Made by a program: the position numbers and the translations under genes. From NCBI GenBank assembly GCA_046563655.1, contig CM102290.1:10106001-10170000 (forward strand): DNA of 64,000 bases. The letters are read 5' to 3'. Origin of the DNA: Yuukianura sp. NJ FZ-2021. Lineage: Eukaryota. This document shows, one piece after another, positions 16,545-49,000 of this stretch (its first letter is position 1; every line of letters starts with the position of its first letter). The notes beneath the pieces are model-generated. The model saw only the letters and a list, made by a program, of their open reading frames with translations. It did not search any database and was not told where the DNA came from.

Positions 16545-19500
16545 TTTTATATCGCCGGAACGGAAAGCGTTAGAGACCTAATCTCTTCACGAAAAACTTT
16601 TAAAAAACATGACAAATTTTAACAAATATTAAAAACTCCAAAATCGAACATCAAGTTTTTTGTCAAATTTTGAAAAAAACCATGGATTTTTTCGAAATTT
16701 GGTCAAAATCTGAGGGTACCTTTTTATATTTTCTAAAAATACTACATATTTTTGTGAATTCAGGGGCGAAGAGTTTAGCTCTCTATCACTTCCCGTTCCT
16801 GAGATATGAATTTTGAAAGTTTTTGAAAATTAAAATGAAATTTTGAAATTTTATATCTCGGCAACGGAAAGCGATAGAGACCTAATCTCTTCGCGAAAAA
16901 CTTTTAAAAAACATGACAAATTTTAACAAATATTAAAAAGTCCAAAATCGAACATCAAGTTTTTCGTCAAATTTTGAAAAAAACCATGGACTATAGTCCA
17001 TGGTTTTTTGTGAAATTTCGTCAAAATCTAAGGGTACCTTTTTATATTTTCTAAAAATACTACATATTTTTGTGAATTCAGGGGCGAAGAGTTTAGCTCT
17101 CTATCACTTCCCGTTCCCGAGATATGAATTTTGAAAGTTTTTGAAAATTAAAATAAAATTTTGAAAATTTATATCTCAGCAACGGAAAGCGTTAGAGACC
17201 TAATCTCTTCGCGAAAAAGTTTAAAAAAATATGAAGAATTTTAACAAATATTAAAAAGTCCAAAATCGAACATCAAGTTTTTCGTCAAATTTTGAAAAAA
17301 ACCATGGACTATATATAGTATATGGTTTTTTGTGAAATTTCGTCAAAATCTAAGGGTACCTTTTTATATTTTCTAAAAATACTACATATTTTTGTGAATT
17401 CAGGGGCGAAGAGTTTAGCTCTCTATCACTTCCCGTTCCCGAGATATGAATTTTGAAAGTTTTTGAAAATTAAAATAAAATTTTGAAAATTTATATCTCG
17501 GCAACGGAAAGCGTTAGAGACCTAATCTCTTCGCGAAAAACTTTTAAAAAGCATGACAAATTTTAACAAATATTAAAAAGTCCAAAATCGAACATCAAGT
17601 TTTTCGTCAAATTTTGAAAAAAAACATGGACTATAGTCCATGGTTTTTTGTGAAATTTCGTCAAAATCTAAGGGTACCTTTTTATATTTTCTAAAAATAC
17701 TACATATTTTTGTGAATTCAGGGGCGAAGAGTTTAGCTCTCTATCACTTCCCGTTCCCGAGATATGAATTTTGAAAGTTTTTGAAAATTAAAATAAAATT
17801 TTGAAAATTTATATCTCAGCAACGGAAAGCGTTAGAGACCTAATCTCTTCGCGAAAAAGTTTAAAAAAATATGAAGAATTTTAACAAATATTAAAAAGTC
17901 CAAAATCGAACATCAAGTTTTTCGTCAAATTTTGAAAAATACCATGGACTATAGTCCATGGTTTTTTGTGAAATTTCGTCAAAATCTAAGGGTACCTTTT
18001 TATATTTTCTAAAAATACTACATATTTTTGTGAATTCAGGGGCGAAGAGTTTAGCTCTCTATCACTTCCCGTTCCCGAGATATGAATTTTGAAAGTTTTT
18101 GAAAATTAAAATAAAATTTTGAAAATTTATATCTCGGCAACGGAAAGCGTTAGAGACCTAATCTCTTCGCGAAAAACTTTTAAAAAACATGACAAATTTT
18201 AACAAATATTAAAAAGTCCAAAATCGAACATCAAGTTTTTCGTCAAATTTTGAAAAAAACCATGGACCATAGTCCATGGTTTTTTGTGAAATTTCGTCAA
18301 AATCTAAGGGTACCTTTTTATATTTTCTAAAAATACTACATATTTTTGTGAATTCAGGGGCGAAGAGTTTAGCTCTCTATCACTTCCCGTTCCCGAGATA
18401 TGAATTTTGAAAGTTTTTGAAAATTAAAATAAAATTTTGAAAATTTATATCTCAGCAACGGAAAGCGTTAGAGACCTAATCTCTTCGCGAAAAAGTTTTA
18501 AAAATATGAAGAATTTTAACAAATATTAAAAAGTCCAAAATCGAACATCAAGTTTTTCGTCAAATTTTGAAAAAAACCATGGACTATAGTCCATGGTTTT
18601 TTGTGAAATTTCGTCAAAATCTAAGGGTACCTTTTTATATTTTCTAAAAATACTACATATTTTTGTGAATTCAGGGGCGAAGAGTTTAGCTCTCTATCAC
18701 TTCCCGTTCCCGAGATATGAATTTTGAAAGTTTTTGAAAATTAAAATAAAATTTTGAAAATTTATATCTCGGCAACGGAAAGCGTTAGAGACCTAATCTC
18801 TTCGCGAAAAACTTTTAAAAAGCATGACAAATTTTAACAAATATTAAAAAGTCCAAAATCGAACATCAAGTTTTTCGTCAAATTTTGAAAAAAAACATGG
18901 ACTATAGTCCATGGTTTTTTGTGAAATTTCGTCAAAATCTAAGGGTACCTTTTTATATTTTCTAAAAATACTACATATTTTTGTGAATTCAGGGGCGAAG
19001 AGTTTAGCTCTCTATCACTTCCCGTTCCCGAGATATGAATTTTGAAAGTTTTTGAAAATTAAAATAAAATTTTGAAAATTTATATCTCAGCAACGGAAAG
19101 CGTTAGAGACCTAATCTCTTCGCGAAAAAGTTTAAAAAAATATGAAGAATTTTAACAAATATTAAAAAGTCCAAAATCGAACATCAAGTTTTTCGTCAAA
19201 TTTTGAAAAAAACCATGGACTATATATAGTATATGGTTTTTTGTGAAATTTCGTCAAAATCTAAGGGTACCTTTTTATATTTTCTAAAAATACTACATAT
19301 TTTTGTGAATTCAGGGGCGAAGAGTTTAGCTCTCTATCACTTCCCGTTCCCGAGATATGAATTTTGAAAGTTTTTGAAAATTAAAATAAAATTTTGAAAA
19401 TTTATATCTCGGCAACGGAAAGCGTTAGAGACCTAATCTCTTCGCGAAAAACTTTTAAAAAGCATGACAAATTTTAACAAATATTAAAAAGTCCAAAATC

Positions 19501-21390
19501 GAACATCAAGTTTTTCGTCAAATTTTGAAAAAAACCATGGACTATAGTCCATGGTTTTTTGTGAAATTTCGTCAAAATCTAAGGGTACCTTTTTATATTT
19601 TCTAAAAATACTACATATTTTTGTGAATTCAGGGGCGAAGAGTTTAGCTCTCTATCACTTCCCGTTCCCGAGATATGAATTTTGAAAGTTTTTGAAAATT
19701 AAAATAAAATTTTGAAAATTTATATCTCAGCAACGGAAAGCGTTAGAGACCTAATCTCTTCGCGAAAAAGTTTAAAAAAATATGAAGAATTTTAACAAAT
19801 ATTAAAAAGTCCAAAATCGAACATCAAGTTTTTCGTCAAATTTTGAAAAAAAACCATGGACTATAGTCCATGGTTTTTTGTGAAATTTCGTCAAAATCTA
19901 AGGGTACCTTTTTATATTTTCTAAAAATACTACATATTTTTGTGAATTCAGGGGCGAAGAGTTTAGCTCTCTATCACTTCCCGTTCCCGAGATATGAATT
20001 TTGAAAGTTTTTGAAAATTAAAATAAAATTTTGAAAATTTATATCTCGGCAACGGAAAGCGTTAGAGACCTAATCTCTTCGCGAAAAACTTTTAAAAAAC
20101 ATGACAAATTTTAACAAATATTAAAAAGTCCAAAATCGAACATCAAGTTTTTCGTCAAATTTTGAAAAAAACCATGGACCATAGTCCATGGTTTTTTGTG
20201 AAATTTCGTCAAAATCTAAGGGTACCTTTTTATATTTTCTAAAAATACTACATATTTTTGTGAATTCAGGGGCGAAGAGTTTAGCTCTCTATCACTTCCC
20301 GTTCCCGAGATATGAATTTTGAAAGTTTTTGAAAATTAAAATAAAATTTTGAAAATTTATATCTCAGCAACGGAAAGCGTTAGAGACCTAATCTCTTCGC
20401 GAAAAAGTTTAAAAAAATATGAAGAATTTTAACAAATATTAAAAAGTCCAAAATCGAACATCAAGTTTTTCGTCAAATTTTGAAAAAAACCATGGACTAT
20501 AGTCCATGGTTTTTTGTGAAATTTCGTCAAAATCTAAGGGTACCTTTTTATATTTTCTAAAAATACTACATATTTTTGTGAATTCAGGGGCGAAGAGTTT
20601 AGCTCTCTATCACTTCCCGTTCCCGAGATATGAATTTTGAAAGTTTTTGAAAATTAAAATAAAATTTTGAAAATTTATATCTCAGCAACGGAAAGCGTTA
20701 GAGACCTAATCTCTTCGCGAAAAAGTTTAAAAAAATATGAAGAATTTTAACAAATATTAAAAAGTCCAAAATCGAACATCAAGTTTTTCGTCAAATTTTG
20801 AAAAAAACCATGGACTATAGTCCATGGTTTTTTGTGAAATTTCGTCGAAATCTAAGGGTACCTTTTTATATTTTCTAAAAATACTACATATTTTTGTGAA
20901 TTCAAGGGCGAAGAGTTTAGCTCTCTATCACTTCCCGTTCCCGAGATATGAATTTTGAAAGTTTTTGAAAATTACAATAAAATTTTGAAAATTTATATCT
21001 CAGCAACGGAAAGCGTTAGAGACCTAATCTCTTCGCGAAAAAGTTTAAAAAAATATGAAGAATTTTAACAAATATTAAAAAGTCCAAAATCGAACATCAA
21101 GTTTTTCGTCAAATTTTGAAAAAAACCATGGACTATAGTCCATGGTTTTTTGTGAAATTTCGTCAAAATCTAAGGGTACCTTTTTATGTTTTCTAAAAAT
21201 ACTACATATTTTTGTGAATTCAGGGGCGAAGAGTTTAGCTCTCTATCACTTCCCGTTCCCGAGATATGAATTTTGAAAGTTTTTTAAAATAAAAAATAAA
21301 ATTTTGAAATTTTATATCTCGTGAACGGAAAGCGATAGAGATCTAATATCTTCACGAAAAACTCTCAAAACACATGATAAATGAAAAACT
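16545..21390. repeat. Tandem satellite, ~318-bp imperfectly palindromic unit, about 15 copies
   Basis: The anchor GCAACGGAAAGCG recurs at 16861, 17179, 17501, 17819, 18137, 18455, 18772, 19090, 19412, 19730, 20049, 20367, 20685 and 21003. Each unit has the central hairpin AAAAAACCATGGACTATAGTCCATGGTTTTTT. Confidence 0.98.
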
Positions 21391-21723: not shown

Positions 21724-24700
21724 CTAAGATGCTTTTGAGGAGTCAATGAGGCAAAGATTTTCTGCCAAAAACTGATCATACTTTACAGCGTCACCGTTGA
21801 GAATACTATGTAAGAAATGTAATGATGCGGGCGTCGTAACCGCGACGAACGGTTGGGGGAGACTGTGTTTCCAGAGACGTAAATTGAAAGTGGCCATTCC
21901 CACCGCACCATGAATTCGTAGTGGACTAGAATCAATTTGTTCGAAACCACTGAGACCCTTATAGCGGTATATCTGCAGCCCAGTGTCCTTGGTTAGAAAG
22001 GCAACAAAATCTTGGTTTCCAACTGAAATTCCTTGGATGCTCAAGAGTCCAGGAGCCTTCAGACGCTGGAATATCGACACCCGCTGATTGGTAATCTCGA
22101 ACACCTAAAAAACGAGACCAATATTTCAAAATTTAACCTGTGAAAATCAAATTACGGCAACGTGTTCCTTGAACTTACCACAAGAGTGCAGTCAGATGGT
22201 ATGAAGGCATCCCTTCCTTCTAGAAATCCGAACGCTTTATTACCAGTCGTTATTACATCAACCATATCCGCTGATGACTGGTTTAACCCAGGTCCCTGGT
22301 AGGGTTGTGGCACAAATTCAATACTTCCAGCGGATCCAAAAAGTTTGAAATGAGCAGCTTGATCGGTTTGATAGAAAAGCCCAATCGAGTTCCCAAATGC
22401 GGTTGCTTTCATTTTGACCACAGGATCTTCTAATTTCGTTTCTTGACTAAGGGCGAACTGTTGTTTAGAAGGGTCCCATACATAAAGCTGCAAAGTTTGG
22501 CGATCTGTTCCAAGGATGAATAGAGCTGAATTCATTGAAGTTCCTTCTCGGTAGGTAGTAAGTGAAATACGCCCACTGCTGCCACTGTAAACCCACTCCT
22601 TTGTGCTGAAAACTCCGTTAGGGTCCATTGTCATGAAGGAAACGCCTTCCCCGGTTGAACAACTGGATTGTACGTTGCTGACGACCAAGATTCCAATGTC
22701 TCCGACTGTCACACTCTCCAACTGTATGGCGCTGCCAATTCGGGTAACTGAGTACGAATACTGGAACAGCTCCGTCGCAATGTCAAATTCAAACGATCCC
22801 ATTTCGCATGTTGCCGAAGAAGATATAAGACGGCTTACATTTCCAGCTTCAATGAAGCTAAGTCGGTTAACCTGAAATTGTTGGAGGAAATGGTAGAATT
22901 AGTCTATATAATTATTTTGATAACCTACTAAACTTGTAAAGGTTAAAAGACTAAAACACTCACAGGTTGCTTTAGAGAAATCGGTGGCTGATGGACTTCG
23001 AAGAACTCCAGTTTTACTGGGCTCCGAGACACTCTCCGGAACAATTCATCGAGAAGCTGGCATTGCTCATCAAAGTACTTTCGTTCAGCAGAAAAATTGT
23101 TCTCCGCTTTGACTGCCTCTGCTTTCTTTTCATCGATGAGTTCCCCAATGTGAAATCCGTCTAATTTTCCATCCCCAGTGACATGGCCCTTGAAAGTCAC
23201 TCCGCCTGCAAAAGTCCATGCTCCACTGATTGTTTGTTTTGTGCCGTTCGTCAAGTAGTTTGTCTTCAGCCCCTCCAAACTCTCTCCGTTGATGTTTCCA
23301 CCAACTTCCAAAGAGTTCTCTACGGTTAGTGTCTTCGCAAAAAACACGGGCGACGTAATGTGGCCACCTTCGTTCAATAGCACAAGATCTCCACGCAGGT
23401 CATTCAAGCACTCCAAATTCCCGTTTACAGTTACGTCACCATCAAATGTCAAAACTCCGTTTACGACTTGGTGGTGCTTGGAATTTTTCTGAAACCAAAT
23501 AACATAAACTAATAAAGGTATAAACAACACAAGACAAATTCCGGGTTGTAAAAACATTATACTTACAGAAAGCGTTCGCTGATACTCTTCCATGATGCTA
23601 TAACCGCAAACAAGTCCACCAACTTCAATATTCCTTCCTCGAAGAAGTGCTTCTTTGACATTCAGTTTACCCAACTTCTGACCTCTATCCAGCCGAATAA
23701 CGTTTGCAAGGATAACGCCGTTGAGAACTTTAACGTCATTCACATTTCCATCGACGACTGCAGAGTCAAGATACATTGTTCCGAGTGACTCCTTGGATTT
23801 GAGATAAGCCGCTTCTTCAATGAACTCTGTTAAATTGTATTCTCCGACTAGACCATGCGATTCAATGTCTCCTTGTTGTAGACGTAACGTTGTTGCTTCT
23901 ACTTCTTTCGCAAATACAACTGCTGACGGAAATCGAATGTTTTGAGTCCTTAGTAAAATTCTACTCAATGAAGAGACAGCAACTCCGTTGACAGTGTCCA
24001 CAATCATGTTTCCTTGGACAGTAATTGGCTCTGTGAAGGTTTTATGTCCAGTGATCCGCAAACCTCTGTCTTGGACATGTACAACAGACAGTAGGAATTT
24101 CTTAATGTCAGTTCCTTGGACTAGGTTTTGAACGATGAGGGAAGTGGAATCCAGCTGAGCGTCTCCATCAACGTCATACTTGAGAACATGTACTGTTCCA
24201 TTTTCACAGGTATAGATACTGGACAGCCAAGGAAGAGATACCGAGTTGATATACCCGGTTGACAACAGCTCTCCATCTAATTGGAAATCGCCTTCAAAAT
24301 GCATCCGGCCTTTGATGTCCTGATCAGTTTTGAGTGTAAACAAGTAGGGAAGCAGATCGTCTCCATTGACTTTGTTCACGAGCAAATCTTCCTTAACATC
24401 TACGGAAGTTAGGAAGGTATTCTCTCCCACAATGTACACGTTTGACTCTCCATTGCGAAGGCTGTCGGCATCCAGTTTTGCCAAATCCACGCCACAAGTT
24501 GTGCCTTGTACGGTCAAGTCTGAGTTGACTAGCAAAGACTATAACATGAAGAAACAAAATCTCTTAAAACTGGCCCATTTACCTAACTTTTTACAAAAGG
24601 AATAGACTAATTTGTTTTTGGTTTACCTCGAATTCCCAAGTTCCAGTGACTTTGATTTCATTTTTTCCACGAAGCGGAACAGCTTGTTCAAATACTCTAT

Positions 24701-27700
24701 CCAAATCCAATCCATTCACTTCCTGCTCAAACCGTATAACTCCATTTTCAATTCGGACCGGTGCAGACGTCTTGAATGTTTTAGTAAAAGTCTGTTGATC
24801 ACGATCTGTTCGAAGAACGTGGTTGTCGACGTAGCTAAGTAGAACATCATTGAGTTTCTTAATATCGCAACTTTCCCGAGCTATAACGTTTCCTACAATC
24901 TCTACGGGCTTTGAAGTCCGGAACGCCTTTGATAAGGACACACGTCGAGCAATCCAAGAATTGAAATCCAAGTCGGCAATGGTTCTACCCGCTCTGACAT
25001 CCAAATTGTCCAAAATTTCTGAAATAGTAACTTATGTTTCAATACGTTCAACTTGAACGGTTCAAGAGAAACGTTTTAAACATTTTGAAAGAAAAAGAAA
25101 ATCAAGAACTTACGCAGAGAACCAGTAGTAAAATCTTGAATTTCCATAGGACTTTTGAAAACTTGGTCCTTACGTCCCTTGATTACTGCTACTACATCTT
25201 CGAAATTCTGAATTCCATTAACAGGACCATCCACTTTCAGCTTGGAACAGTGTATTTCTTCAAATGTAAGTTTGGATGAAACGGTTCTGGCTTTGGAGAG
25301 ACGGAAAGCATCTCCTACAAGTTGCTTCAAATCCACTTTGTCGAAAGTACTGAGGGCATAGAGCGATGTAAAGCGCATGTCGCCCGTGAACGTCTTATCA
25401 CCCGTTACATTTTGTGGACCCGACAAACTAAAGATGTCTACCAACGGAACCCCATTAATTTCTCCCGACGTAATTTGCGCATCCAAGCCAGAAATCGACT
25501 TTTCAAAAGTCGTCGTGCCCTTAACCTTGACTTCACGGCCATCCTTGTAACAAAAACAAAACTCCATTAATACATATTTTGGTATTAAAAACCGATAGAA
25601 AAGACTTAAAAAGATAAATCAAAGCCTCACAAACGTCAAAAGGCCACCAAACAGTTCTTGAAACTTTTTGTAGTTGATGTTGTCAGTGACCTTGAGATTT
25701 TTAAACGTAACCGGTTGAAGGAACTCCACATCCGCATCAGGGAAATAGGATGACTTGTACTGGTCCAGGGTGTCCTTGTGCTTTAGTTCTTCCATTTTGA
25801 TTCCGTCGACGTAACCTTTCACAGTGACGTCATCTAAGAACACAGCCCCATCCTTCAGCGTCCATTTTCCTCTGATGGTATCATATTCAAGACGACTCAG
25901 CAGGTCAGCCGTTGCAATGCCATCTACAAGCCCTTCGACAACTACCTATAAACGTAAAGACAAGTTAATAATTTTTGTATAAGGAAAATAAGTCTTAACA
26001 TTTGGGTTTGACTTACTTTAGTAGCACTTAGGCGCGAAAATGTTTTGCTGCCCGATATTATGAGTCGCTTCTGTGCCGTAGTGACCAAATCATGTGGAAA
26101 TTTAAATTCGTTTAATGTTGAGTCAATGTGAAGCGAATCTGAAGATAGTAACCCTTTCAGCCGTTTCGCCCCTCGAATGAGTCCAGAAAAGTCTTGTGTG
26201 ATGATTGAGCGTAGGAAGGTGGCAAAGTCGACTCCGTTGATAGTTGTGATCTTGAGAGACCCCTCTGTGACAACATCCGTAAAACTGTAAGGTACTTCAA
26301 CTTTCTGCGTGGTTGACCGCAGAAGTAAGTTTTGAAACGTTTCTGTGGTGATATGGACGGAGTCGACAGGGTCAGTCAATGACGCTCCTTTGACGCTTAC
26401 AATCCCATCCACTAGTCTCACACCTTAGTAAACAAGTATTGTAGACTTTAGTACATAGAAGTTAGAAGCGCTAATTGCAAAATTACCTGAAACGTCGAAA
26501 GCACGAATGATTTGTTCTGCAAACCGAATTCCGTTCACTCTGGCAGGTTTCAAATCTCCACTGACCTTCACATGACTAAACTCAAAGTCACCGTAGAAAT
26601 GATTCTGTTTTCCAAGATGTGCAATATCCTTGACCAAGACTCCATTGAGCTTCGTTGTGAACAAATCTCCAATGCTCAATTCCCCGCTGAATCGAATAGC
26701 TGAGCTGTCAAGTTTGACTGACCTCTGGTATAGAAAGAGGCTTGCGAGGAATGCATCAATATCTTTCTGGTTGATACTGCGAGCGGTCAAGCTATCGACG
26801 GTCAGAGCAGTGGTAGTAAACGATCCAGTAATTGTTTGCTGAGCAGTTACAATTTCCACCTTGTCTGAATTAATAGGAATCGAGTCTTTAAGAATACGAT
26901 TAGCCTCTTCATCCAATTCGCGTAGCTGGTAGATTGCTCTGTCGAGGTCGGACAGTTTCGTGGTAAAATCAATATCAGCCCAATCAATTCCCAGCAATTT
27001 GAAAGAGTCGAATGGATTTCCTGGTACAGGTTTGTTCATATTTATGTTGAACGTTTTGGCGGTCAGGGTTCGCAGGTTCCATTTGCCAGTGATTTCATTG
27101 GACAATGTCCGTGATAGGGCATCGCTCAACGTTGCTTTCACACTTGAAACAACTGATTGCCACCTAAATTCCGGTTTGCCAAAACAAGATAAGAACGTTT
27201 CAATAGAGGGGTTGAGAATAAATCGAAACTCGACGATACACATGATTTAAATAGTAAGTAAGGTCAAGGTCCAACAATATGCGGCAGATGACGACATATA
27301 CCTTTTGTATCGCTGAAAAAGAGCCTTCATCTCGACAACCACGTCACTGGATTGCTTAAAGAGCGGTGACACAGACTCCTTCGTATACTTGGATATGACA
27401 AGCACCTCCGCCTGGTTGCTTGTCTCAGTCGACGGTAAAACATAGTATGAGACCTCATTGACGGTAAACCCAACGCCTTTTCCCAATGATGCTTTGGAGT
27501 AGCAGACATCTAAAAAAAAATTGAGAGAATTCAAGAAGCAGCTAATAAACCGGAAACGTTAACCTTATGTTATTACCGCTAGGGCATTTGAAGTCTTCAA
27601 CTGTGAACGAATGTCCGTCATACGCAAGGATCTCAATTTGTGCTGCATCCCTTCTCTTGCTAAGAACAAAGTGTTCGTCCCGGTAGTCCTCGACATTAAG

Positions 27701-29204
27701 AGCATGAAGCTCAGCGGCCTCTACCGAAGCAATCGCGCCTTCATTCGTGTACTGGTGGCCATTGAACCCAAAGAATTCAACCTTGGCCGTAGTTGATGCA
27801 GGGACAGAGGCAAGGTACTGCTTGTATGCAACTGAGAAGGAGACAAGCTGAGTTGAAGGATATGATAAGCTTATGATTTGCTGTTGAGTGTAGCGTCCGT
27901 TTTCGTTGTCATAACCGTATATTGTGATGGTCAAGTCAGAGGCAATGGCAATGTAAGATTCAGATCCCAAATCATAAACAGCGACATGACTGCTCCCATT
28001 CACTGGAAGACGTTGATGATACCTGTATAAATAGATAAGGTTTCCATAGATTACTGGCTTGACCTTCTGGATGAACGAATAAATTGAAGTTTCCAATGAG
28101 TTCTCATAATGCATTACTCAAATTCATTTTATTGTAATTTGCTTACCAAACTTGACTGGTACTGTTGAGAGCAATATTGTAGATATTCAGTGGAACATTA
28201 GGTTCGGATGGTACGACAATGATTTTCGTGGATGACCCGACGTGACAGTACTCCAAAGCCTTGATGTCATAATACAAAGGCCAGCCGTCGTTCACCTTGG
28301 TGATGACATCGTTTTCCAACTTGTAAATGACGATGCCCTTCGTCGTTGCAACGGGAATTACAATTTCAGGAAAACCAGCTTCGAAATTCCAACGAGAAAA
28401 AACTGTGAGGCTCACAAGCGGCTGACTTGAGTCTGAGAAAAGAAAAAAGGGGGGCGGGATAACAAAAATTTAGTTGATTAATATTCAAAATCAAGAAGTT
28501 AATGAAAGGCCTTATCAATGCGAAGTCTTACCAATGGATGATATTTTCTTAAGGTCAGATCCAAGGACATCGATAGATTTACTTGTGATCCCAATGATGT
28601 AATGATAGAATCCAACACGGGCATACTTCCACTGCAAATACTTCCCTGGAATCCACCGCTTCTCCACTTTTTCAACTCGAACAACTGAAATTACAGACAC
28701 CAAACCGCGACTGTTCAATTAAGCATACTAGGAATTTTGAAAATCGTTTGTCTCGATTCGCACGAAAATCCCAATTAGGATTAGTACTCATTTTTCAATA
28801 CACAAAACCCGATGATTTATGTAAACTTAATTCCAGGGTTTCGCTAGTACTCTAAAGTTTAGAGTACTAGCGAAACTTAGAGTCTAAACAGCTATGACCT
28901 GCGACTAAACAGCTACACGACTCCATAAGGTACCAATGGTACCGTACCATACTTACTACTGATCATTTGCGTTTCCCTCACCTTCTCTGCTAGTGGTGGT
29001 TGATGTCAGGGAATGCGGATGCCAGAATTCTGTCGGGTCAATGTCCGAGTACTTCTCGAAGAGTTCTTGGGTAATCAAGTCTGACGATGCGATGAGTTTG
29101 TCTTGTAGGATACTGGTAAGTGGCTCTAATTTAACCCCACCAACAGAAGATGTGACGAAAATGGTTACTACTATTAGCAACTGGACAACGTGGACAGTGT
29201 CCAT
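21724..29204 (-). CDS. Large secreted protein (~2000 aa, ~14 exons) resembling the closca/fs(1)polehole/Nasrat vitelline-membrane family, with EAR/EPTP-like ends and a repetitive central shaft
   Basis: Signal peptide MDTVHVVQLLIVVTIFVTSSVGG. Approximate exons: 29204-28982, 28685-28532, 28432-28147, 28023-27577, 27510-27302, 27163-26487, 26424-26037, 25945-25630, 25543-25114, 25018-24628, 24538-23566, 23488-22964, 22872-22177 and 22104-21724. EAR-like segments (YHQRLPVNGSSHVAVY, IYRYKGLSGFEQI, LYVWDPSKQQF) flank many QxIxGxKTF / INGV repeats. The gene structure is well supported; the family name is from memory of motifs. Confidence 0.7.
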
Positions 29205-31533
29205 GACGTTCCTCTTCTAGGACTCACGACTGACTGATGATAGAAGGTTAAGGAATGAACAAGACAGACTCAGAGGCATGAGGTTGAGGAGAGAGACGGA
29301 CTCCAAAACTGGCTTCCACAAACAAAGAAAAAAACGCGCAAAATTCAAAACGGAAAAAAAACTAATAATTATCATGTCTAAACTACTAATAGAATGTTAC
29401 AGGTGAGAGTGTGTGACTCGGTGATTTCTGCTTAGCGACTAATTGATTTGTTGATTTATATCGGCCCATTAGGCAGTATTGGAAAATTAACGGTGAGGTA
29501 ATTTTCCTACTAAACTTTTAACTTTTTCGAATTTGAAATTATGTTATTTAAAAAGAGTGATTTTCCTACTAAACTTTGAACTTTTTCGAATTTGAAATTA
29601 TGTTATTTAGAAAGAGTGATTTTCCTACTAAACTTTTAACTTTTTGGAATTTGAAATTATGTTATTTAGAAAGAGTGATTTTCCTACTAAACTTTTAACT
29701 TTTTGGAATTTGAAATTATGTTATTTAGAAAGAGTGATTTTCCTACTAAACTTTTAACTTTTTGGAATTTGAAATTATGTTATTTAGAAAGAGTGATTTT
29801 CCTACTAAACTTTTAACTTTTTGGAATTTGAAATTATGTTATTTAGAAAGAGTGATTTTCCTACTAAACTTTTAACTTTTTGGAATTTGAAATTATGTTA
29901 TTTAGAAAGAGTGATTTTCCTACTAAACTTTTAACTTTTTGGAATTTGAAATTATGTTATTTAGAAAGAGTGATTTTCCTACTAAACTTTTAACTTTTTG
30001 GAATTTCGAATTATGTTATTTAAAAAGAGTGATTTTCCTACTAAACTTTTAACTTTTTGGAATTTCGAATTATGTTATTTAAAAAGAGTGATTTTCCTAC
30101 TAAACTTTTAACTTTTTGGAATTTCGAATTATGTTATTTAAAAAGAGTGATTTTCCTACTAAACTTTTAACTTTTTGGAATTTCGAATTATGTTATTTAA
30201 AAAGAGTGATTTTCCTACTAAACTTTTAACTTTTTGGAATTTCGAATTATGTTATTCAAAAAGAGTGATTTTCCTACTAAACTTTTAACTTTTTGGAATT
30301 TCGAATTATGTTATTTAAAAAGAGTGATTTTCCTACTAAACTTTTAACTTTTTGGAATTTCGAATTATGTTATTTAAAAAGAGTGATTTTCCTACTAAAC
30401 TTTTAACTTTTTGGAATTTCGAATTATGTTATTTAAAAAGAGTGATTTTCCTACTAAACTTTTAACTTTTTGGAATTTCGAATTATGTTATTTAAAAAGA
30501 GTGATTTTCCTACTAAACTTTTAACTTTTTGGAATTTCGAATTATGTTATTTAAAAAGAGTGATTTTCCTACTAAACTTTTAACTTTTTGGAATTTCGAA
30601 TTATGTTATTTAAAAAGAGTGATTTTCCTACTAAACTTTTAACTTTTTGGAATTTCGAATTATGTTATTTAAAAAGAGTGATTTTCCTACTAAACTTTTA
30701 ACTTTTTGGAATTTCGAATTATGTTATTTAAAAAGAGTGATTTTCCTACTAAACTTTTAACTTTTTGGAATATCGAATTATGTTATTTAAAAAGAGTGAT
30801 TTTCCTACTAAACTTTTAACTTTTTGGAATATCGAATTATGTTATTTAAAAAGAGTGATTTTCCTACTAAACTTTTAACTTTTTGGAATTTCGAATTATG
30901 TTATTTAAAAAGAGTGATTTTCCTACTAAACTTTTAACTTTTTGGAATTTCGAATGATGTTATTTAAAAAGAGTGATTTTCCTACTAAACTTTTAACTTT
31001 TTGGAATTTCGAATTATGTTATTTAAAAAGAGTGATTTTCCTACTAAACTTTTAACTTTTTGGAATTTCGAATTATGTTATTTAAAAAGAGTGATTTTCC
31101 TACTAAGAGAATGTTTTGTGAGACGTTACACGTAACCCGAGCTCCCGACAAACTCATTTTTTTAGCAGTGAAATAATCGACCTACCTGCAAGTGACATAC
31201 ATCAAAACACTCGGAATTCGCTACTGCATCGACTGAAATCAAAGACTCACCGTTTGGAATCGGTTAACAACACTTAATGGTAAAAACAACTTCCACTATT
31301 CTTAATCAGCTGAGACTAATCGGATCGACACCCCACCTGCTTCAATACCTCTGTATAAGCCGGCGAACAAGTTAAAAGTCACCTAGATCATCCAGTAGTA
31401 AGTCCGCTATCCAAATCACTTGTAACTATAACTGACTTGACCCTGTTAACAGCAAATTAATCGGTTAACACGTCAAATCTGACATTTCTGTCGTTTCCGA
31501 GGTTTGGTCACTCTCCACCCTCTTCCCTAATTT

Positions 31534-31665
31534 CCCGATTCAGGGAACCCTACCTAATCCTCTGACAACCTAAAATCCCGATTCAGGGAACCCTGCCTAA
31601 TCCTCCGACAACCTAAAATCCCGATTCTGGGAACACTATCTAATCCTCCGACAAGCAGATATCTC
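31534..31665 (+). repeat. 43-bp tandem repeat x3 in the 5'UTR of the retroelement
   Basis: CCCGATTCAGGGAACCCT(A/G)CCTAATCCTC(T/C)GACAACCTAAAAT starts at 31534, 31577 and 31620. Confidence 0.9.
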
Positions 31666-31721
31666 ATCTTCTCAATCCTCGCATCCCGCGTTTAAATCTC
31701 CGATTCAGGAGTTACCTTGAA

Positions 31722-32005
31722 AATTTCCAATTTAAGGAATTCTCACTTCAGAGACTTGGCAAAAACAATTTCCAATTGAGGAATTCTCGCTTCAGAGATT
31801 TGTCAATATACAATTTCCAATTAAGGAATTCTCACTTCAGAGATTTGGCAAAAACAATTTCCAATTAAGGAATTCTCACTTCAGAGATTTATCAAAACAA
31901 TTTCCAGTTAAGGAATTCTCAATTCAGAGATTTTTCAAAAACAATTTCCAATTAAGGAATTCTCAATTCAGAGATCTGTCAAAAAACAATAACCAGTTAA
32001 GCAAT
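31722..32005 (+). repeat. ~44-bp tandem repeat x6 plus a partial copy in the 5'UTR of the retroelement
   Basis: AATTTCCAATTAAGGAATTCTCACTTCAGAGATTTGGCAAAAAC starts at ~31722, 31767, 31812, 31856, 31899 and 31943. Confidence 0.92.
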
Positions 32006-32031
32006 TCTTTGAAAGATTGATTGAAAAATTG

Positions 32032-32826
32032 ATGCCGATCTCACGTTCCCCCGTGTCACAAAACATGTCTCAAACCACTCTTTCGTTCCTCCCACAAAAC
32101 AAAGGAAGCAAACGACCTGCCGAATCGGAACCTAATAACGGAAACGAACCATGCTCAAAAAGATCAAATGTCTCGAATGAAGATCTAATGGCGGCAATGA
32201 CAAAACTGATTGACAGAACTGAAAAGATCGACGCAAAAATTGACACGAGATGTGACTCCATCGAACTCAAACTAGAGAAATACCAAGAGCAAATTGAAGA
32301 ATTACAAACGAAAACTGATCAGCAACAAAAAGAAATTGATCAACTAAAAAAGCTTAACTCCCGCCTCACAGATGAACTAAGACGTAACAACGTTCTGATC
32401 CACGGAGTTCCAGAAGTTGCAAATGAAAACACAACAAACATTACCAACGGCTTCTTCAACCATTACCAAGTCCGAGTTAATGTAGAAGATGCATTTAGGA
32501 TTGGAAAGTTTAACCCGACCTCTGATAAACCACGCCCGATTAAGGTTCGCCTGTCTTCCTTTGCGCAACGCGGACAAGCACTCCAGCTGCGGAAGAAACT
32601 CCTTCAAGACAAAGATGTGTGCTCCATTACCGAAGACCTGACCATTGAAACCAGAACTGAAAGACGAAAGATATGGGAATCACGACAAAACGGTCAAGGA
32701 AATCGTCCCCGCGCACCCTCGCCAAAAGACAAACGTAACGCAAAACAAACTGAACCTAGGACACATCAACTCCCACCCAGTACATCAAACTACGTATCCT
32801 TCAGGAACAGGGCAGCGATAACATAA
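32032..32826 (+). CDS. LINE ORF1p-like protein (coiled coil + RRM + CTD, L1 ORF1/Transposase_22-like), 264 aa from the first ATG
   Basis: Intronless and uninterrupted. It has a heptad coiled coil (LKLEKYQEQIEELQTKTDQQQKEIDQLKKLNSRL), then the ORF1 motifs RRNNVLIHGVPE, AFRIGK...PRPIKVRL and ITEDLT...RR. Confidence 0.88.
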   Translation: MPISRSPVSQNMSQTTLSFLPQNKGSKRPAESEPNNGNEPCSKRSNVSNEDLMAAMTKLIDRTEKIDAKIDTRCDSIELKLEKYQEQIEELQTKTDQQQKEIDQLKKLNSRLTDELRRNNVLIHGVPEVANENTTNITNGFFNHYQVRVNVEDAFRIGKFNPTSDKPRPIKVRLSSFAQRGQALQLRKKLLQDKDVCSITEDLTIETRTERRKIWESRQNGQGNRPRAPSPKDKRNAKQTEPRTHQLPPSTSNYVSFRNRAAIT

Positions 32827-35800
32827 CCCCCCCCCCTTTTCTCGCTCTACAGAATTCAGACGGTTCACAACTCCACGCAAAATTTTGGAATACTCCCATT
32901 CTACGATTAACTGAACAGAATCAATCTCAACCCTAGATCCTCCCATACACCCGCAAACCCTTGATTTTACTGTAACCCGCGAACCCCTTTCTCAATTAAC
33001 TTAAATTAATAACTCAAACTTTAACTCTACTTTAACCGTATTTTACCGTATCTTACCGTACTTTTAAATTACTAAATTCGAAATCTCAATTCATACTAAA
33101 CTGTATCTTGATAGGGCAATTGCCAATGTCAAATAAACTAATTGAATTGAATTGAATTGAATTTTCCTACTAAACTTTTAACTTTTTGGAATTTCGAATT
33201 ATGTTATTTAAAAAGAGTGATTTTCCTACTAAACTTTTAACTTTTTGGAATTTCGAATTATGTTATTTAAAAAGAGTGATTTTCCTACTAAACTTTTAAC
33301 TTTTTGGAATTTCGAATTATGTTATTTAAAAAGAGTGATTTTCCTACTAAACTTTTAACTTTTTGGAATTTCGAATTATGTTATTTAAAAAGAGTGATTT
33401 TCCTACTAAACTTTTAACTTTTTGGAATTTCGAATTATGTTATTTAAAAAGAGTGATTTTCCTACTAAACTTTTAACTTTTTGGAATTTCGAATTATGTT
33501 ATTTAAAAAGAGTGATTTTCCTACTAAACTTTTAACTTTTTGGAATTTCGAATTATGTTATTTAAAAAGAGTGATTTTCCTACTAAACTTTTAACTTTTT
33601 GGAATTTCGAATTATGTTATTTAAAAAGAGTGATTTTCCTACTAAACTTTTAACTTTTTGGAATTTCGAATTATGTTATTTAAAAAGAGTGATTTTCCTA
33701 CTAAACTTTTAACTTTTTGGAATTTCGAATTATGTTATTTAAAAAGAGTGATTTTCCTACTAAACTTTTAACTTTTTGGAATTTCGAATTATGTTATTTA
33801 AAAAGAGTGATTTTCCTACTAAACTTTTAACTTTTTGGAATTTCGAATTATGTTATTTAAAAAGAGTGATTTTCCTACTAAACTTTTAACTTTTTGGAAT
33901 TTCGAATTATGTTATTTAAAAAGAGTGATTTTCCTACTAAACTTTTAACTTTTTGGAATTTCGAATTATGTTATTTAAAAAGAGTGATTTTCCTACTAAA
34001 CTTTTAACTTTTTGGAATTTCGAATTATGTTATTTAAAAAGAGTGATTTTCCTACTAAACTTTTAACTTTTTGGAATTTCGAATTATGTTATTTAAAAAG
34101 AGTGATTTTCCTACTAAACTTTTAACTTTTTGGAATTTCGAATTATGTTATTTAAAAAGAGTGATTTTCCTACTAAACTTTTAACTTTTTGGAATTTCGA
34201 ATTATGTTATTTAAAAAGAGTGATTTTCCTACTAAACTTTTAACTTTTTGGAATTTCGAATTATGTTATTTAAAAAGAGTGATTTTCCTACTAAACTTTT
34301 AACTTTTTGGAATTTCGAATTATGTTATTTAAAAAGAGTGATTTTCCTACTAAACTTTTAACTTTTTGGAATTTCGAATTATGTTATTTAAAAAGAGTGA
34401 TTTTCCTACTAAACTTTTAACTTTTTGGAATTTCGAATTATGTTATTTAAAAAGAGTGATTTTCCTACTAAACTTTTAACTTTTTGGAATTTCGAATTAT
34501 GTTATTTAAAAAGAGTGATTTTCCTACTAAACTTTTAACTTTTTGGAATTTCGAATTATGTTATTTAAAAAGAGTGATTTTCCTACTAAACTTTTAACTT
34601 TTTGGAATTTCGAATTATGTTATTTAAAAAGAGTGATTTTCCTACTAAACTTTTAACTTTTTGGAATTTCGAATTATGTTATTTAAAAAGAGTGATTTTC
34701 CTACTAAACTTTTAACTTTTTGGAATTTCGAATTATGTTATTTAAAAAGAGTGATTTTCCTACTAAACTTTTAACTTTTTGGAATTTCGAATTATGTTAT
34801 TTAAAAAGAGTGATTTTCCTACTAAACTTTTAACTTTTTGGAATTTCGAATTATGTTATTTAAAAAGAGTGATTTTCCTACTAAACTTTTAACTTTTTGG
34901 AATTTCGAATTATGTTATTTAAAAAGAGTGATTTTCCTACTAAACTTTTAACTTTTTGGAATTTCGAATTATGTTATTTAAAAAGAGTGATTTTCCTACT
35001 AAACTTTTAACTTTTTGGAATTTCGAATTATGTTATTTAAAAAGAGTGATTTTCCTACTAAACTTTTAACTTTTTGGAATTTCGAATTATGTTATTTAAA
35101 AAGAGTGATTTTCCTACTAAACTTTTAACTTTTTGGAATTTCGAATTATGTTATTTAAAAAGAGTGATTTTCCTACTAAACTTTTAACTTTTTGGAATTT
35201 CGAATTATGTTATTTAAAAAGAGTGATTTTCCTACTAAACTTTTAACTTTTTGGAATTTCGAATTATGTTATTTAAAAAGAGTGATTTTCCTACTAAACT
35301 TTTAACTTTTTGGAATTTCGAATTATGTTATTTAAAAAGAGTGATTTTCCTACTAAACTTTTAACTTTTTGGAATTTCGAATTATGTTATTTAAAAAGAG
35401 TGATTTTCCTACTAAACTTTTAACTTTTTGGAATTTCGAATTATGTTATTTAAAAAGAGTGATTTTCCTACTAAACTTTTAACTTTTTGGAATTTCGAAT
35501 TATGTTATTTAAAAAGAGTGATTTTCCTACTAAACTTTTAACTTTTTGGAATTTCGAATTATGTTATTTAAAAAGAGTGATTTTCCTACTAAACTTTTAA
35601 CTTTTTGGAATTTCGAATTATGTTATTTAAAAAGAGTGATTTTCCTACTAAACTTTTAACTTTTTGGAATTTCGAATTATGTTATTTAAAAAGAGTGATT
35701 TTCCTACTAAACTTTTAACTTTTTGGAATTTCGAATTATGTTATTTAAAAAGAGTGATTTTCCTACTAAACTTTTAACTTTTTGGAATTTCGAATTATGT

Positions 35801-38800
35801 TATTTAAAAAGAGTGATTTTCCTACTAAACTTTTAACTTTTTGGAATTTCGAATTATGTTATTTAAAAAGAGTGATTTTCCTACTAAACTTTTAACTTTT
35901 TGGAATTTCGAATTATGTTATTTAAAAAGAGTGATTTTCCTACTAAACTTTTAACTTTTTGGAATTTCGAATTATGTTATTTAAAAAGAGTGATTTTCCT
36001 ACTAAACTTTTAACTTTTTGGAATTTCGAATTATGTTATTTAAAAAGAGTGATTTTCCTACTAAACTTTTAACTTTTTGGAATTTCGAATTATGTTATTT
36101 AAAAAGAGTGATTTTCCTACTAAACTTTTAACTTTTTGGAATTTCGAATTATGTTATTTAAAAAGAGTGATTTTCCTACTAAACTTTTAACTTTTTGGAA
36201 TTTCGAATTATGTTATTTAAAAAGAGTGATTTTCCTACTAAACTTTTAACTTTTTGGAATTTCGAATTATGTTATTTAAAAAGAGTGATTTTCCTACTAA
36301 ACTTTTAACTTTTTGGAATTTCGAATTATGTTATTTAAAAAGAGTGATTTTCCTACTAAACTTTTAACTTTTTGGAATTTCGAATTATGTTATTTAAAAA
36401 GAGTGATTTTCCTACTAAACTTTTAACTTTTTGGAATTTCGAATTATGTTATTTAAAAAGAGTGATTTTCCTACTAAACTTTTAACTTTTTGGAATTTCG
36501 AATTATGTTATTTAAAAAGAGTGATTTTCCTACTAAACTTTTAACTTTTTGGAATTTCGAATTATGTTATTTAAAAAGAGTGATTTTCCTACTAAACTTT
36601 TAACTTTTTGGAATTTCGAATTATGTTATTTAAAAAGAGTGATTTTCCTACTAAACTTTTAACTTTTTGGAATTTCGAATTATGTTATTTAAAAAGAGTG
36701 ATTTTCCTACTAAACTTTTAACTTTTTGGAATTTCGAATTATGTTATTTAAAAAGAGTGATTTTCCTACTAAACTTTTAACTTTTTGGAATTTCGAATTA
36801 TGTTATTTAAAAAGAGTGATTTTCCTACTAAACTTTTAACTTTTTGGAATTTCGAATTATGTTATTTAAAAAGAGTGATTTTCCTACTAAACTTTTAACT
36901 TTTTGGAATTTCGAATTATGTTATTTAAAAAGAGTGATTTTCCTACTAAACTTTTAACTTTTTGGAATTTCGAATTATGTTATTTAAAAAGAGTGATTTT
37001 CCTACTAAACTTTTAACTTTTTGGAATTTCGAATTATGTTATTTAAAAAGAGTGATTTTCCTACTAAACTTTTAACTTTTTGGAATTTCGAATTATGTTA
37101 TTTAAAAAGAGTGATTTTCCTACTAAACTTTTAACTTTTTGGAATTTCGAATTATGTTATTTAAAAAGAGTGATTTTCCTACTAAACTTTTAACTTTTTG
37201 GAATTTCGAATTATGTTATTTAAAAAGAGTGATTTTCCTACTAAACTTTTAACTTTTTGGAATTTCGAATTATGTTATTTAAAAAGAGTGATTTTCCTAC
37301 TAAACTTTTAACTTTTTGGAATTTCGAATTATGTTATTTAAAAAGAGTGATTTTCCTACTAAACTTTTAACTTTTTGGAATTTCGAATTATGTTATTTAA
37401 AAAGAGTGATTTTCCTACTAAACTTTTAACTTTTTGGAATTTCGAATTATGTTATTTAAAAAGAGTGATTTTCCTACTAAACTTTTAACTTTTTGGAATT
37501 TCGAATTATGTTATTTAAAAAGAGTGATTTTCCTACTAAACTTTTAACTTTTTGGAATTTCGAATTATGTTATTTAAAAAGAGTGATTTTCCTACTAAAC
37601 TTTTAACTTTTTGGAATTTCGAATTATGTTATTTAAAAAGAGTGATTTTCCTACTAAACTTTTAACTTTTTGGAATTTCGAATTATGTTATTTAAAAAGA
37701 GTGATTTTCCTACTAAACTTTTAACTTTTTGGAATTTCGAATTATGTTATTTAAAAAGAGTGATTTTCCTACTAAACTTTTAACTTTTTGGAATTTCGAA
37801 TTATGTTATTTAAAAAGAGTGATTTTCCTACTAAACTTTTAACTTTTTGGAATTTCGAATTNNNNNNNNNNNNNNNNNNNNNNNNNNNNNNNNNNNNNNN
37901 NNNNNNNNNNNNNNNNNNNNNNNNNNNNNNNNNNNNNNNNNNNNNNNNNNNNNNNNNNNNNATTTCGAATTATGTTATTTAAAAAGAGTGATTTTCCTAC
38001 TAAACTTTTAACTTTTTGGAATTTCGAATTATGTTATTTAAAAAGAGTGATTTTCCTACTAAACTTTTAACTTTTTGGAATTTCGAATTATGTTATTTAA
38101 AAAGAGTGATTTTCCTACTAAACTTTTAACTTTTTGGAATTTCGAATTATGTTATTTAAAAAGAGTGATTTTCCTACTAAACTTTTAACTTTTTGGAATT
38201 TCGAATTATGTTATTTAAAAAGAGTGATTTTCCTACTAAACTTTTAACTTTTTGGAATTTCGAATTATGTTATTTAAAAAGAGTGATTTTCCTACTAAAC
38301 TTTTAACTTTTTGGAATTTCGAATTATGTTATTTAAAAAGAGTGATTTTCCTACTAAACTTTTAACTTTTTGGAATTTCGAATTATGTTATTTAAAAAGA
38401 GTGATTTTCCTACTAAACTTTTAACTTTTTGGAATTTCGAATTATGTTATTTAAAAAGAGTGATTTTCCTACTAAACTTTTAACTTGTGGAATTTCGAAT
38501 TATGTTATTTAAAAAGAGTGATTTTCCTACTAAACTTTTAACTTGTGGAATTTCGAATTATGTTATTTAAAAAGAGTGATTTTCCTACTAAACTTTTAAC
38601 TTTGTGGAATTTGGAATTATGTTATTTAAAAAGAGTGAAAAAAAAACTTTTAACTTTTTGGAATTTTTGGGAGACTGAATTCTACCGTATTATACATCTA
38701 ATTGTATAATACATATTTTACATCCTGAATGTATTTAGCATTGGGACATCCGGAAAACTACGGGCATTATGCCAAGCCTTATACGTTGTATTATACGAAT

Positions 38801-46078: not shown

Positions 46079-49000
46079 TCAGTCCGTTTTGAAGAGTCCA
46101 GAGAAGATTCCCTTACGCTCAGGCATTTGAGCCATGAGCATTGGAACTTGGTTCTTATGAGTAATTTGAATCTAGAAAGAAACACACGAATCTCACGAGA
46201 AAGGGTTCAATTAATCAAGACTCAAGTAATTGCAGTCAATTAGTCAAGGAGTCAATTACCGTCGAGGGCGGTTGCATCCAGGGCTCTCCATCGATCTGCA
46301 TTGGGAATCTCTTCTTCGTTCGAATGGTTACGGACGAGCACTGAGCCAAGCGTCTTCCAGAGGCCCTCAATCCAGTCTTTACTTGACCCATGTGTAGACA
46401 GTTCTCCAGACCAATCACCTCGATCAACTTGTCCCCGATGTCTAAGAATCACTCAAGGTTAGTCATACATTTAAGTTACGCGCATGCCCAAAGTTAGTTT
46501 ATTCTTTGCAGTTAGTTGACTTGTGACCTTACCTTGGATGGCCGTGGAAAGGTCATTGATAGACGACGTTGACATTTCCTTGTCTTGGTGTTTCTTGGGT
46601 CCTCGTTTGGCTCTTTTCCTGGACAACTGATCTCCCCACATATTGGTCCCCCCATGAGTGTATGGAATGTTCAAAAAGGCAAGGCCTTGTAGTGACGGTC
46701 CTTGTGACAACTCCAGTGACACTCCGTCACACTGCATTTTCCAAAATTTTGAAACGTTAAGACTCTAAAATATTCCAAAAACAAAAAGTTTCACTCTCAC
46801 TAACCTCTACTTCAATTTCCTGGTGGAGATTTTTGCACGACGCTGCAAACTGCTCTGTCGTTCCGAATTCAAAGTACCACATTTTGTTCCGCATTCGAGA
46901 GTTGAATTTGTGCGGATTCTTCTCTCGTTCCATGTGAAACTTGAAACAAATAGCAGCGTCCTGCAGAGGAAGGAAATGGACATCATTACAACAAATGTCG
47001 AAAGTTAAAATCCATTTTGATACTATTCTATTATTATTGTTATAATTATTGTAAATAAAGTTATTTACGCCACGCCTTACCACCCCAATGGAAAAGTAGT
47101 TGTTGACAATGTTGTACGGTATCGGATCTCCAGGCACATCCGTTTCCCCATCCTCCGAAACACTAATTTGCCATCGGTCCATCATTACTGTACTTGCCTT
47201 GTCAATTTTCTGTAATTCCAAGTGCACCGTTATTACAATTACTTCAGTGCCAATCAGGCGATTTATAATTAATTATAAACTAAAAATACAATTACCAAAA
47301 TAATTAATCAATTGCCAATTAAATTACCTTGAGTATTTTCGCAATAGTCTCCCCTTCATAGCCCCCGCCCCACCTCAGACACCGAGCCAAATCATTTCCT
47401 GTTCCCAATGGTAGTACGCCTACACTCGGCTGCTTTACAAATTGCACTTTGTCTGAAATTAAATTCAAAAACATCAAATTTCGTAAATAAGTTCGAAATA
47501 GTAGTTTCTCAAAAATTCGAAAACCGTCAGTTACCCATAGTGTCCAGTACCCAGCCCACTGTTCCATCTCCACCACAGCAAATAATGCGCATGTCCACAA
47601 CGTCCTTGAACATTTGAAGAGCCGCTAGAGGACCACACGTTCCCAGATCATAAACCTACAGTGAAAGACAAATGCTAATTACAATTAAACCATACAAATT
47701 ATGTAAGTTAATTGGAAATTGGATGTCAATGACTGATTAATGTACCTGTCGTGGATTGAGAAGGTACTGAAACTTTCGATGTAGTTTTGGCCCCTGACAC
47801 CCTCCACTTTTCGGATTAATGAAAACTAGGAGAGGACGAGTATTTGGCGGGGTAGTGATTTGAAATGACATTGGACCGGAGGTGGTGCCCTGTTGGGCCA
47901 GACTTGAGTTACTTGTCGTTGTGTCCGGAGGCTAAAAAAGTCAATCATGTCACTATTAGATCAACATTAGATTCCGAAAATGATCAAATTATGTCACGTG
48001 AGTCGACTAACCGGGAATTGCTCAGTTGTTTCTGAGCGGGAGAGTCCGGAGGTTGACCTCCTGTCTCTGGAGAAGGACCTCTGTCTGTCCAGGACCACGG
48101 GACAAATGGCTGTAGGCGGGAGAATGTGAGTTCGAAATTCTCCAAGCGTGCATTCTGGTTTGATTTGAGACGAACAGGAGTTGTGGACCTGGAACGAGAA
48201 TTTAGAACAAAATTTAAACACTTTGGCGACGCACGAGGTCACGTGTAACTGTCACTAATCTCCCGCCACAATTCATCTCTGTCACCCCACAGCTCCGCCC
48301 CTCCACTTCCCTCATTCACAAAATCATAAATCTCCAATTTGTCATTCCGACACTCAAGAAGTTGATGACATTCCTCTCTGCCCAAACAACTCTTCACAAC
48401 GCCAACTTTCACACGAGTTCAAATCCCGCCTAACCTGGAATTTTTTTAAATACTGAATAATGAAACGGGCTTAACTGTCATTTGACACCAGCGACAGTGG
48501 AGCCCTGTGATTCCATTTGTACTTTTTATCGTCTTTTTGCACTTTGAGCACTTCCCGTGACAATTCCCTTCGACCCAGTGATGTGTCATGGCCTAAACGT
48601 TCAAATCACAAACTCAAATTAAAAATTTTAAAAACAAAAACAACTTTAACAAAACTGTTTCAAAAGTAGAAAAATCTTGAGTCAGAATTAAAAGAAGTCG
48701 TACCTGAGAGCTCTTTTTAGACTTTACATATGTGGCTATACAGGAGGACGGGGCTCTTTGGACACATCTCTCGTGTACAGTATACTTGCAGACTACGAAA
48801 TAAGTAAAAAACCAAATCAACTCGAAAAGGTCAAAGGTCAAACAACATGGAAAAAAAAGATTAAAACTTACAGACGCAACAAAGCCCCTTTTTGCCCAAT
48901 CCCACAAGCATGTTGAGGCAGAGATTACAGTAGGCAGAGCGGTTGAAGTGTTTCAACCGCCAAAAGTGATTCCCATCCTCCTTCACGTTCTAAAAAAAAA

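Follow-up and report, generated by a model that had tools for sequence, protein, structure and literature searches.

A complete-ended retroelement with a LINE-type ORF1 as its only long gene, inserted into a 59-bp satellite of Yuukianura sp.

Three non-autonomous long interspersed nuclear elements (LINEs), namely HeT-A of the Jockey clade, HAL1 of the L1 clade as well as Ag-Sponge of the CR1 clade in Anopheles, have been grouped as bipartite elements that still encode ORF1p, the protein of the first open reading frame (ORF) (PMC5786205); here and below, statements on published elements are based on excerpts of the cited papers. HAL1 encodes solely an ORF1p with a coiled coil and an RNA recognition motif (RRM) and needs the ORF2p of a partner (PMC5753468, PMC5786205), HeT-A has a Gag/ORF1 protein alone and takes its reverse transcriptase (RT) from another element (PMC5786205), and Ag-Sponge of Anopheles gambiae is described as a product of internal deletion (PMC3414825) with a low copy number (PMC6740152). 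We analysed 64,000 nucleotides of contig CM102290.1 (assembly GCA_046563655.1, Yuukianura sp. NJ FZ-2021; positions 10,106,001 to 10,170,000), called the window hereafter, in which a retroelement of 2054 bp with an intact ORF1 interrupts a 59-bp satellite. On balance we read this insert as a member of an internally deleted, non-autonomous LINE family of the bipartite, ORF1-present type, which would be mobilised in trans by a partner recognising its 3' end.

Elements of this kind are already known, an arthropod host and the CR1 clade included, and the insert in the window is a further example rather than a new kind. The earlier note on this DNA, made from the sequence alone, had proposed a possibly undescribed 'half-LINE' family of CR1/L2 type in an arthropod. 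As a claim of a new kind this was too strong, since the literature records internally deleted LINEs with ORF1 alone in three clades, and Ag-Sponge of the CR1 clade is one of them (PMC5786205). The likeness to Ag-Sponge is one of description: both would be non-autonomous, internally deleted LINE derivatives with one ORF1p-type protein, and they would be the same kind of element in the same phylum if the window comes from an arthropod host and the partner belongs to a CR1-like type. The insert shares with HAL1 and HeT-A the coding of an ORF1-type protein alone and the dependence on another element that this implies, and it differs from each of them. HAL1 is derived from L1, a relaxed type ending in poly(A) (PMC3747384), whereas the insert ends in a hairpin and an (ATTGA)4 tail, and its ORF1p has no folded C-terminal domain (CTD) and does not reach the Pfam family Transposase_22. 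HeT-A is described as telomere-specific, whereas the insertion studied here is interstitial and has a target-site duplication (TSD); the ORF1s of the Jockey lineage are all reported to be type I, with RRM and CCHC knuckles (PMC4120745), whereas no CCHC motif is present here. The short internally deleted elements (SIDEs), such as the R2 and R2/R1 SIDEs, Persaeus from the CR1 element Zenon, and TbRIME, likewise consist of a LINE's 5' and 3' ends brought together by internal deletion and are mobilised via a common 3' end, but they have no ORF, whereas a complete ORF1 is kept in the insert (PMC3414825, PMC6740152). A literature search for an ATTGA tail found no related description.

The insert is a complete-ended non-long-terminal-repeat retroelement with the signature of target-primed reverse transcription, i.e. 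a TSD and a repeat tail. The two copies of the 13-bp sequence ATTTTCCTACTAA at its ends are identical, and taking out the insert together with one of them restores the 59-bp register of the satellite, because the spacing of 2126 between the unit starts at 31035 and 33161 equals 59 + 2054 + 13. The duplication is a true TSD and not a chance repeat in a periodic array. The last three bases of the boundary (ATT) may come either from the target or from a fifth unit of the tail, and the TSD is therefore 10-13 bp long. The element is freshly inserted into the satellite. No long direct or inverted terminal repeats were found; the repeat search of the element gave internal tandem repeats and three short, imperfect, non-terminal inverted pairs. 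No ribozyme or other RNA family of Rfam matched between 31000 and 33300 at E <=1, and no second copy of the element is present elsewhere in the window.

The element has one gene of any length (Table 1). ORF1 is the sole plus-strand ORF of at least 60 aa within the insert, one ORF of 50 aa being nested inside it, and the 5' untranslated region (UTR) has no plus-strand ORF of at least 50 aa. A tblastn search with ten ORF2 proteins of relatives found no ORF2 remnant in the element (best E 0.03) and nothing at 1e-3 in the whole window. The anatomy given in the earlier note, comprising the 13-bp TSD, a 925-nt 5'UTR, a 264-aa ORF, a C run, a 3'UTR, a stem-loop, AATAAA and (ATTGA)4, was recovered feature by feature at the same positions, and so were its reading as a complete-ended retroelement insertion, borne out by TSD, satellite register and tail, and the lack of an ORF2 remnant. 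Its view that the single ORF is of ORF1 type also holds, as profile, AlphaFold/Foldseek and VIA matches to L1 ORF1p indicate. Two further observations were made on the sequence of the element. The stretch 31111-31125, 5 nt from the 5' end, is 93% complementary over 15 nt to 32052-32066, 21 nt past the ATG, with ~0.1 such pairs expected by chance per 2 kb by a rough estimate; this could be a long-range leader pairing or chance. At 32827-32861 the C10 run extends into a pyrimidine-rich stretch with a CAG end, ccccccccccttttctcgctctacag, which resembles a 3' splice acceptor.

The protein comparisons and the predicted structure indicate that the ORF encodes a true LINE ORF1p, type II-like with coiled coil and RRM and without a folded CTD. 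A Pfam or profile check of the ORF, as proposed in the earlier note, gave a divided answer. The Pfam scan of the 264-aa protein returned coiled-coil families alone, all under the cut-off, and PF02994 (Transposase_22) was absent among the best 25 of 34 matches (E <=10); it was also absent among the 25 families most often matched by the ORF1 protein and its relatives (61 sequences), which were again coiled-coil families below cut-offs. The profile built from these sequences (the ORF1 protein and 60 relatives) does match human LINE-1 ORF1p 2ykp, with E 2.7e-21, across coiled coil and RRM. The AlphaFold model has a predicted local distance difference test score (pLDDT) of 84.3, and the top 11 matches of Foldseek against the PDB are all L1 ORF1p (best E 1.4e-6). 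The VIA alignment to 2ykq_A covers 133 aligned residues with Z 11.9 and a root-mean-square deviation of 2.3 A. The human LINE-1 ORF1p structures (2ykp, 2yko, 2ykq and 2w7a) share with the model a long helix that forms a coiled coil and, behind it, a non-canonical RRM, whereas the identity is ~22% and the CTD is missing in the ORF1p of the window. The CTD is taken to be missing because the last 43 residues are predicted to be disordered (residues 222-264, pLDDT 61-68, without secondary structure) and because the VIA alignments to L1 ORF1p stop at chain residues 265-293, the one to 2ykq_A at 265. The 11 nearest relatives likewise stop shortly past the RRM. All 18 residues invariant among these relatives are present in the ORF1 protein, as is the conserved N-terminal M..RSP start. 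The protein has three cysteines only and no CCHC motif. We also considered that its last 43 residues might be a linker and the start of an endonuclease, and rejected this: MAFFT puts NYVSFRNR under YNVKSLKNK of the ORF2 heads of relatives, but 693 of 2000 shuffled tails score equally.

The relatives of this protein place it, by sequence, in a LINE gene lineage. Among 1.84 billion representatives, a full phmmer search identified 702 relatives at E <=1e-3, the best with E 3.2e-21 and 35% identity, and most of them are 200-300 aa long. Most of the closest Atlas clusters are from arthropods, and a tick protein is among the relatives, which gives no more than a hint of an arthropod origin. A word-index search of proteins had no match at near lengths; at longer lengths it gave two false positives of coiled-coil type and not one ORF1-ORF2 fusion. 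For the metagenomes we used a profile from a 12-sequence alignment, no block of the 61-sequence alignment being conserved enough, and found 27 loci with ORF1 homologues. We scanned the downstream ORFs of 10 of these loci; in 8 of them, the ORF next after the ORF1 homologue carries endonuclease and/or RT domains of Pfam. No relatives were found in the genome-contig and viral-contig collections. Full-length ORF2 proteins of the lineage are 1038-1077 aa long, with endonuclease and RT and no RNase H by Pfam. The RTs of the relatives match L1 and R2 structures alone in PDB searches, which is not informative on the clade, and the Atlas label for their ORF2 is 'reverse transcriptase' and nothing finer. 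Type II ORF1 is reported from the L1, CR1, L2 and R1 clades, with 'no clear CR1-like or L2-like ORF1' (PMC4120745), and the ORF therefore gives no clade assignment. The 3' hairpin with a short tandem-repeat tail, a trait described for CR1 (PMC8665684) and for UnaL2 of the L2 clade (PMC3747384), is present in the element; repeat tails are not exclusive to CR1/L2, one example being TAA in the I clade (PMC3747384).

Several features of these relatives were observed in passing. In the five nearest metagenome LINEs (L001:3891-4976, L002:1201-3861, L004:43-1056, L005:514-2019 and L006:1009-3366) ORF2 lies in the frame of ORF1 past a single TGA, which suggests stop-codon readthrough or a host reading TGA as sense. 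In the more distant relatives L013, L015 and L024, ORF1 and ORF2 overlap in different frames. The tick-genome relative of ORF1p (P0016, E 1.2e-11) is labelled 'protein unc-13 homolog C-like' by its source and is probably a LINE ORF1 misannotated as a host gene. The region upstream of the L001 LINE contains, on the opposite strand (252-3456, minus), an integrase-SH3 remnant as well as an ORF whose product has a 3'-5' exonuclease domain (PF01612), and other mobile elements are therefore nested there.

These data suggest how an element of this kind could move. It would have kept the tandem monomers of its 5'UTR, which are likely to act as an internal promoter, a full ORF1p, and a LINE's final ~200 nt, which include the hairpin and the (ATTGA)n tail. 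The endonuclease and the RT must come in trans because the element encodes neither, and would be supplied by an autonomous relative that recognises the common 3' hairpin and tail. By homology, the ORF1p of the element would coat its own RNA. The AUU of the tail may anneal to the AAT of the nicked target, tail unit and target having a 3-base ATT match. As the anatomy shows, the RNA was copied into the satellite nick by target-primed reverse transcription, leaving the 13-bp duplication. LINEs of the stringent type are described as using 3'-end recognition and tail repeats, e.g. TGTAA in UnaL2 (PMC3747384), and CR1 a 3' hairpin plus microsatellite (PMC8665684). More tentatively, we speculate that the insert belongs to an active half-LINE family with ORF1 only, whose L1-like ORF1p without CTD is under selection and which is parasitic on the RT of a stringent LINE via hairpin and tail. 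The supply of ORF1p and RT would in that case be split outside the L1 and Jockey clades, and the family may prefer, or survive well in, one satellite.

We looked for further copies in public sequencing runs. Five runs contain the sequence, four from one sample (organism A) and one from another organism label and study (organism B), and none of the five is an RNA run. Contigs from four of the five aligned to the element at 80% likeness or more, and 32 pieces are listed. Exact-type contigs tile the element in run X1 without differences and at an even depth (1316, 1567, 1303 and 1390), and diverged contigs are found in the same run at a depth of 25-280. Among the rows listed, variants occur over the whole length of the element, supported by 2-4 contigs for the 5'UTR, by as many as 15 for ORF1 and, in X1, by 7 for position 33052. 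The run contigs show that the element exists in several sequence variants. One is X3 record 23 (32691-33078), which has four substitutions and five gap letters and crosses both the ORF end and position 32963; this second sequence, though not identical, keeps the same structure from ORF end to 3' part. Near-exact pieces were also found under the second organism label and study (X5 record 25). Contig joints skip exactly 43 or 81 bases in the 5'UTR in runs of both organisms, and the number of monomers therefore differs among copies; the depth over the 44-bp monomer bins is 5-7 times higher, as the internal repeat predicts. For the ORF, 10 of the 14 listed variants are synonymous third-position changes and the other four are conservative replacements (binomial p 0.004 for an expected share of one third). 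These listed variants are the best-supported of 432 rows and are pooled from all contigs at least 80% alike.

The depth profile also suggests where the element may have been put together. The depth has its minimum at 32799-32944 in all four runs, and from 32945-33018 to the end, i.e. over the last 140-200 nt, it goes up 2-4.5-fold; the 3' terminal module is therefore probably common to other elements. ORF1 has a depth two- to four-fold above that of the exact type. This fits ORF1 and the last 140-200 nt being common to other, probably autonomous and 5'-truncated, elements, with the intervening piece being the element's own. Among the 32 listed pieces, the ORF end is crossed by the exact X2 record 16 and the near-exact X3 record 23, and 32963 by record 23 only. 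X3 record 24 and X5 record 32, which are ~11% diverged, extend across the stop codon and C run as far as 32963, where they depart from the element and continue with 217 and 168 unlike letters, respectively. On the depth and these two contigs, we tentatively place the deletion junction at 32963/32964 in preference to the C run, where the ORF1-to-3'UTR junction had previously been placed.

The strongest alternative is that internal deletion of an autonomous LINE gave rise to the insert as a one-off copy, with the deletion having occurred during reverse transcription or in the genome after insertion; its multiplicity would come from satellite amplification or segmental duplication, and its intact ORF would reflect youth and not selection. 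We consider this unlikely but worth serious weighing. It is in keeping with the single copy in the window, with the assembly gap in the host satellite, and with the exact-type contigs, whose lack of differences and flat depth are what co-amplified or single-locus DNA would show; the diverged contigs that depart at 32963 may be the parent, and internally deleted LINE copies are described as mostly of low copy number (PMC6740152). However, X3 record 23 has the same structure without being identical, near-exact pieces come from a second organism label and study, and variants in monomer number occur in both organisms. Neither the 5.5 kb of array flanking one side nor the 1.6 kb flanking the other contains a second copy, so that a co-amplified unit would have to be large.

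Several points weigh against the internally deleted, trans-mobilised family that we favour. X3 record 24 and X5 record 32 may represent the full-length parent instead of further copies with ORF1 only. In X3 the junction has a depth of 27.8 against 270-960 for ORF1, so that most ORF1 sequences there are unattached to the junction, or records were filtered. The exact-type depth of ~1300 in X1 could in principle mean few copies, or copies multiplied together with the gapped satellite array. No copy at another site, or with another flank or TSD, is seen among the contig pieces listed, the 3' junction bin, 33164-33220, having depth 0 in all runs as repeats were skipped. No partner LINE, RT or second tail is present within the 64-kb window. 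The variant pool takes in related LINE families, so that the constraint applies to the ORF1 lineage as a whole and not specifically to copies with ORF1 only. Finally, the hairpin is real but modest: 10 of 200 shuffles fold equally well, and alone it is not statistically striking. The last 101 nt of the element fold at z -3.76, and (ATTGA)4 is found at no other place in the window, with 0.02 matches expected.

It is improbable that the family inserts site-specifically into the 59-bp satellite, giving many near-identical copies at one target position. The insertion in a satellite, the 3-base match between tail and target and the deep, uniform exact-type contigs would agree with it, but one insertion cannot show specificity, the satellite is abundant enough to make a random hit likely, and no junction contigs are among those listed. 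A host gene derived from ORF1, as mammalian L1TD1 is, or a retrocopy of one would explain the intact, conserved ORF with its mostly synonymous variants, and is very improbable in view of the TSD, the LINE-type repeat tail, the monomeric 5'UTR, the satellite location, the several diverged variants, and the lack of introns or host-gene context at the locus.

Table 1. Features of the insert, its insertion site and its ORF1 protein (positions in the window; amino acid positions in the last row)
Feature	Position	Strand	Remarks
59-bp satellite, upstream array	29501-31106		Tandem Repeats Finder (TRF): 27.2 copies, 99% matches
5' copy of 13-bp TSD, ATTTTCCTACTAA	31094-31106	+	identical to 33161-33173
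Whole retroelement, 2054 bp	31107-33160	+	interrupts 59-bp satellite
5'UTR, 925 nt	31107-32031	+	
43-bp tandem monomers x3.0 in 5'UTR	31526-31654	+	TRF and repeat search of element
44-bp tandem monomers x6.5 in 5'UTR	31722-32008	+	end 24 nt before ATG; TRF and repeat search of element
ORF1, 264 aa	32032-32826	+	ATG to TAA, intact
C10 run	32827-32836	+	right behind ORF1 stop codon
Non-coding 3' part	32837-33140	+	~300 nt, no long ORF
Proximal non-coding module	32837-32963	+	in run X1 covered almost solely by exact-type contigs
3' terminal module	32964-33140	+	from run depth and 7 variant contigs at 33052 in X1
Hairpin, interrupted, 9-bp	33108-33132	+	8 nt before tail; -9 kcal/mol, z -1.92
AATAAA	33132-33137	+	
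(ATTGA)4 tail	33141-33160	+	
3' copy of 13-bp TSD, ATTTTCCTACTAA	33161-33173	+	identical to 31094-31106
59-bp satellite, downstream array	33161-38638		TRF: 93.0 copies, 97% matches; same phase as upstream array
100-N assembly gap	37862-37961		inside downstream 59-bp satellite
ORF1 protein regions (AlphaFold)	1-48; 49-116; 120-201; 205-221; 222-264		predicted disordered; long helix (coiled coil); RRM; helix; basic disordered tail

The surroundings of the element include a second satellite at 16524-21361, with a 318-bp unit in 15.2 copies, 96% matches and 29% GC. On the minus strand at 21724-28117 there are eight stop-free frames of 126-531 aa without Pfam match and without flanking long repeats, which probably belong, as exons, to a large host gene containing internal repeats. 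Another exon-like frame on the minus strand at 46757-47272 has a diacylglycerol kinase accessory domain (PF00609, E 5.6e-17), and this part of the window is therefore a host-gene neighbourhood. The true length of the 59-bp array, and any further copies of the element in it, are hidden by the 100-N gap.

Known LINE biology is unchanged by this finding. LINE derivatives with ORF1 only are rare, and HAL1, HeT-A and Ag-Sponge are the three named in the excerpts of the literature cited here. The ORF1 family is not recognised by Pfam, and a tick relative carries the name of an unc-13 homologue, which should caution annotators. Such derivatives bear on the open point of how far one and the same RNA must supply both ORF1p and ORF2p (cis-preference), and on whether a parasite benefits from bringing an RNA-coating protein of its own. 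For trans-complementation assays in a LINE of the stringent type, a young copy that is intact, complete at its ends and equipped with a defined 3' recognition module and a CTD-less ORF1p would be convenient.

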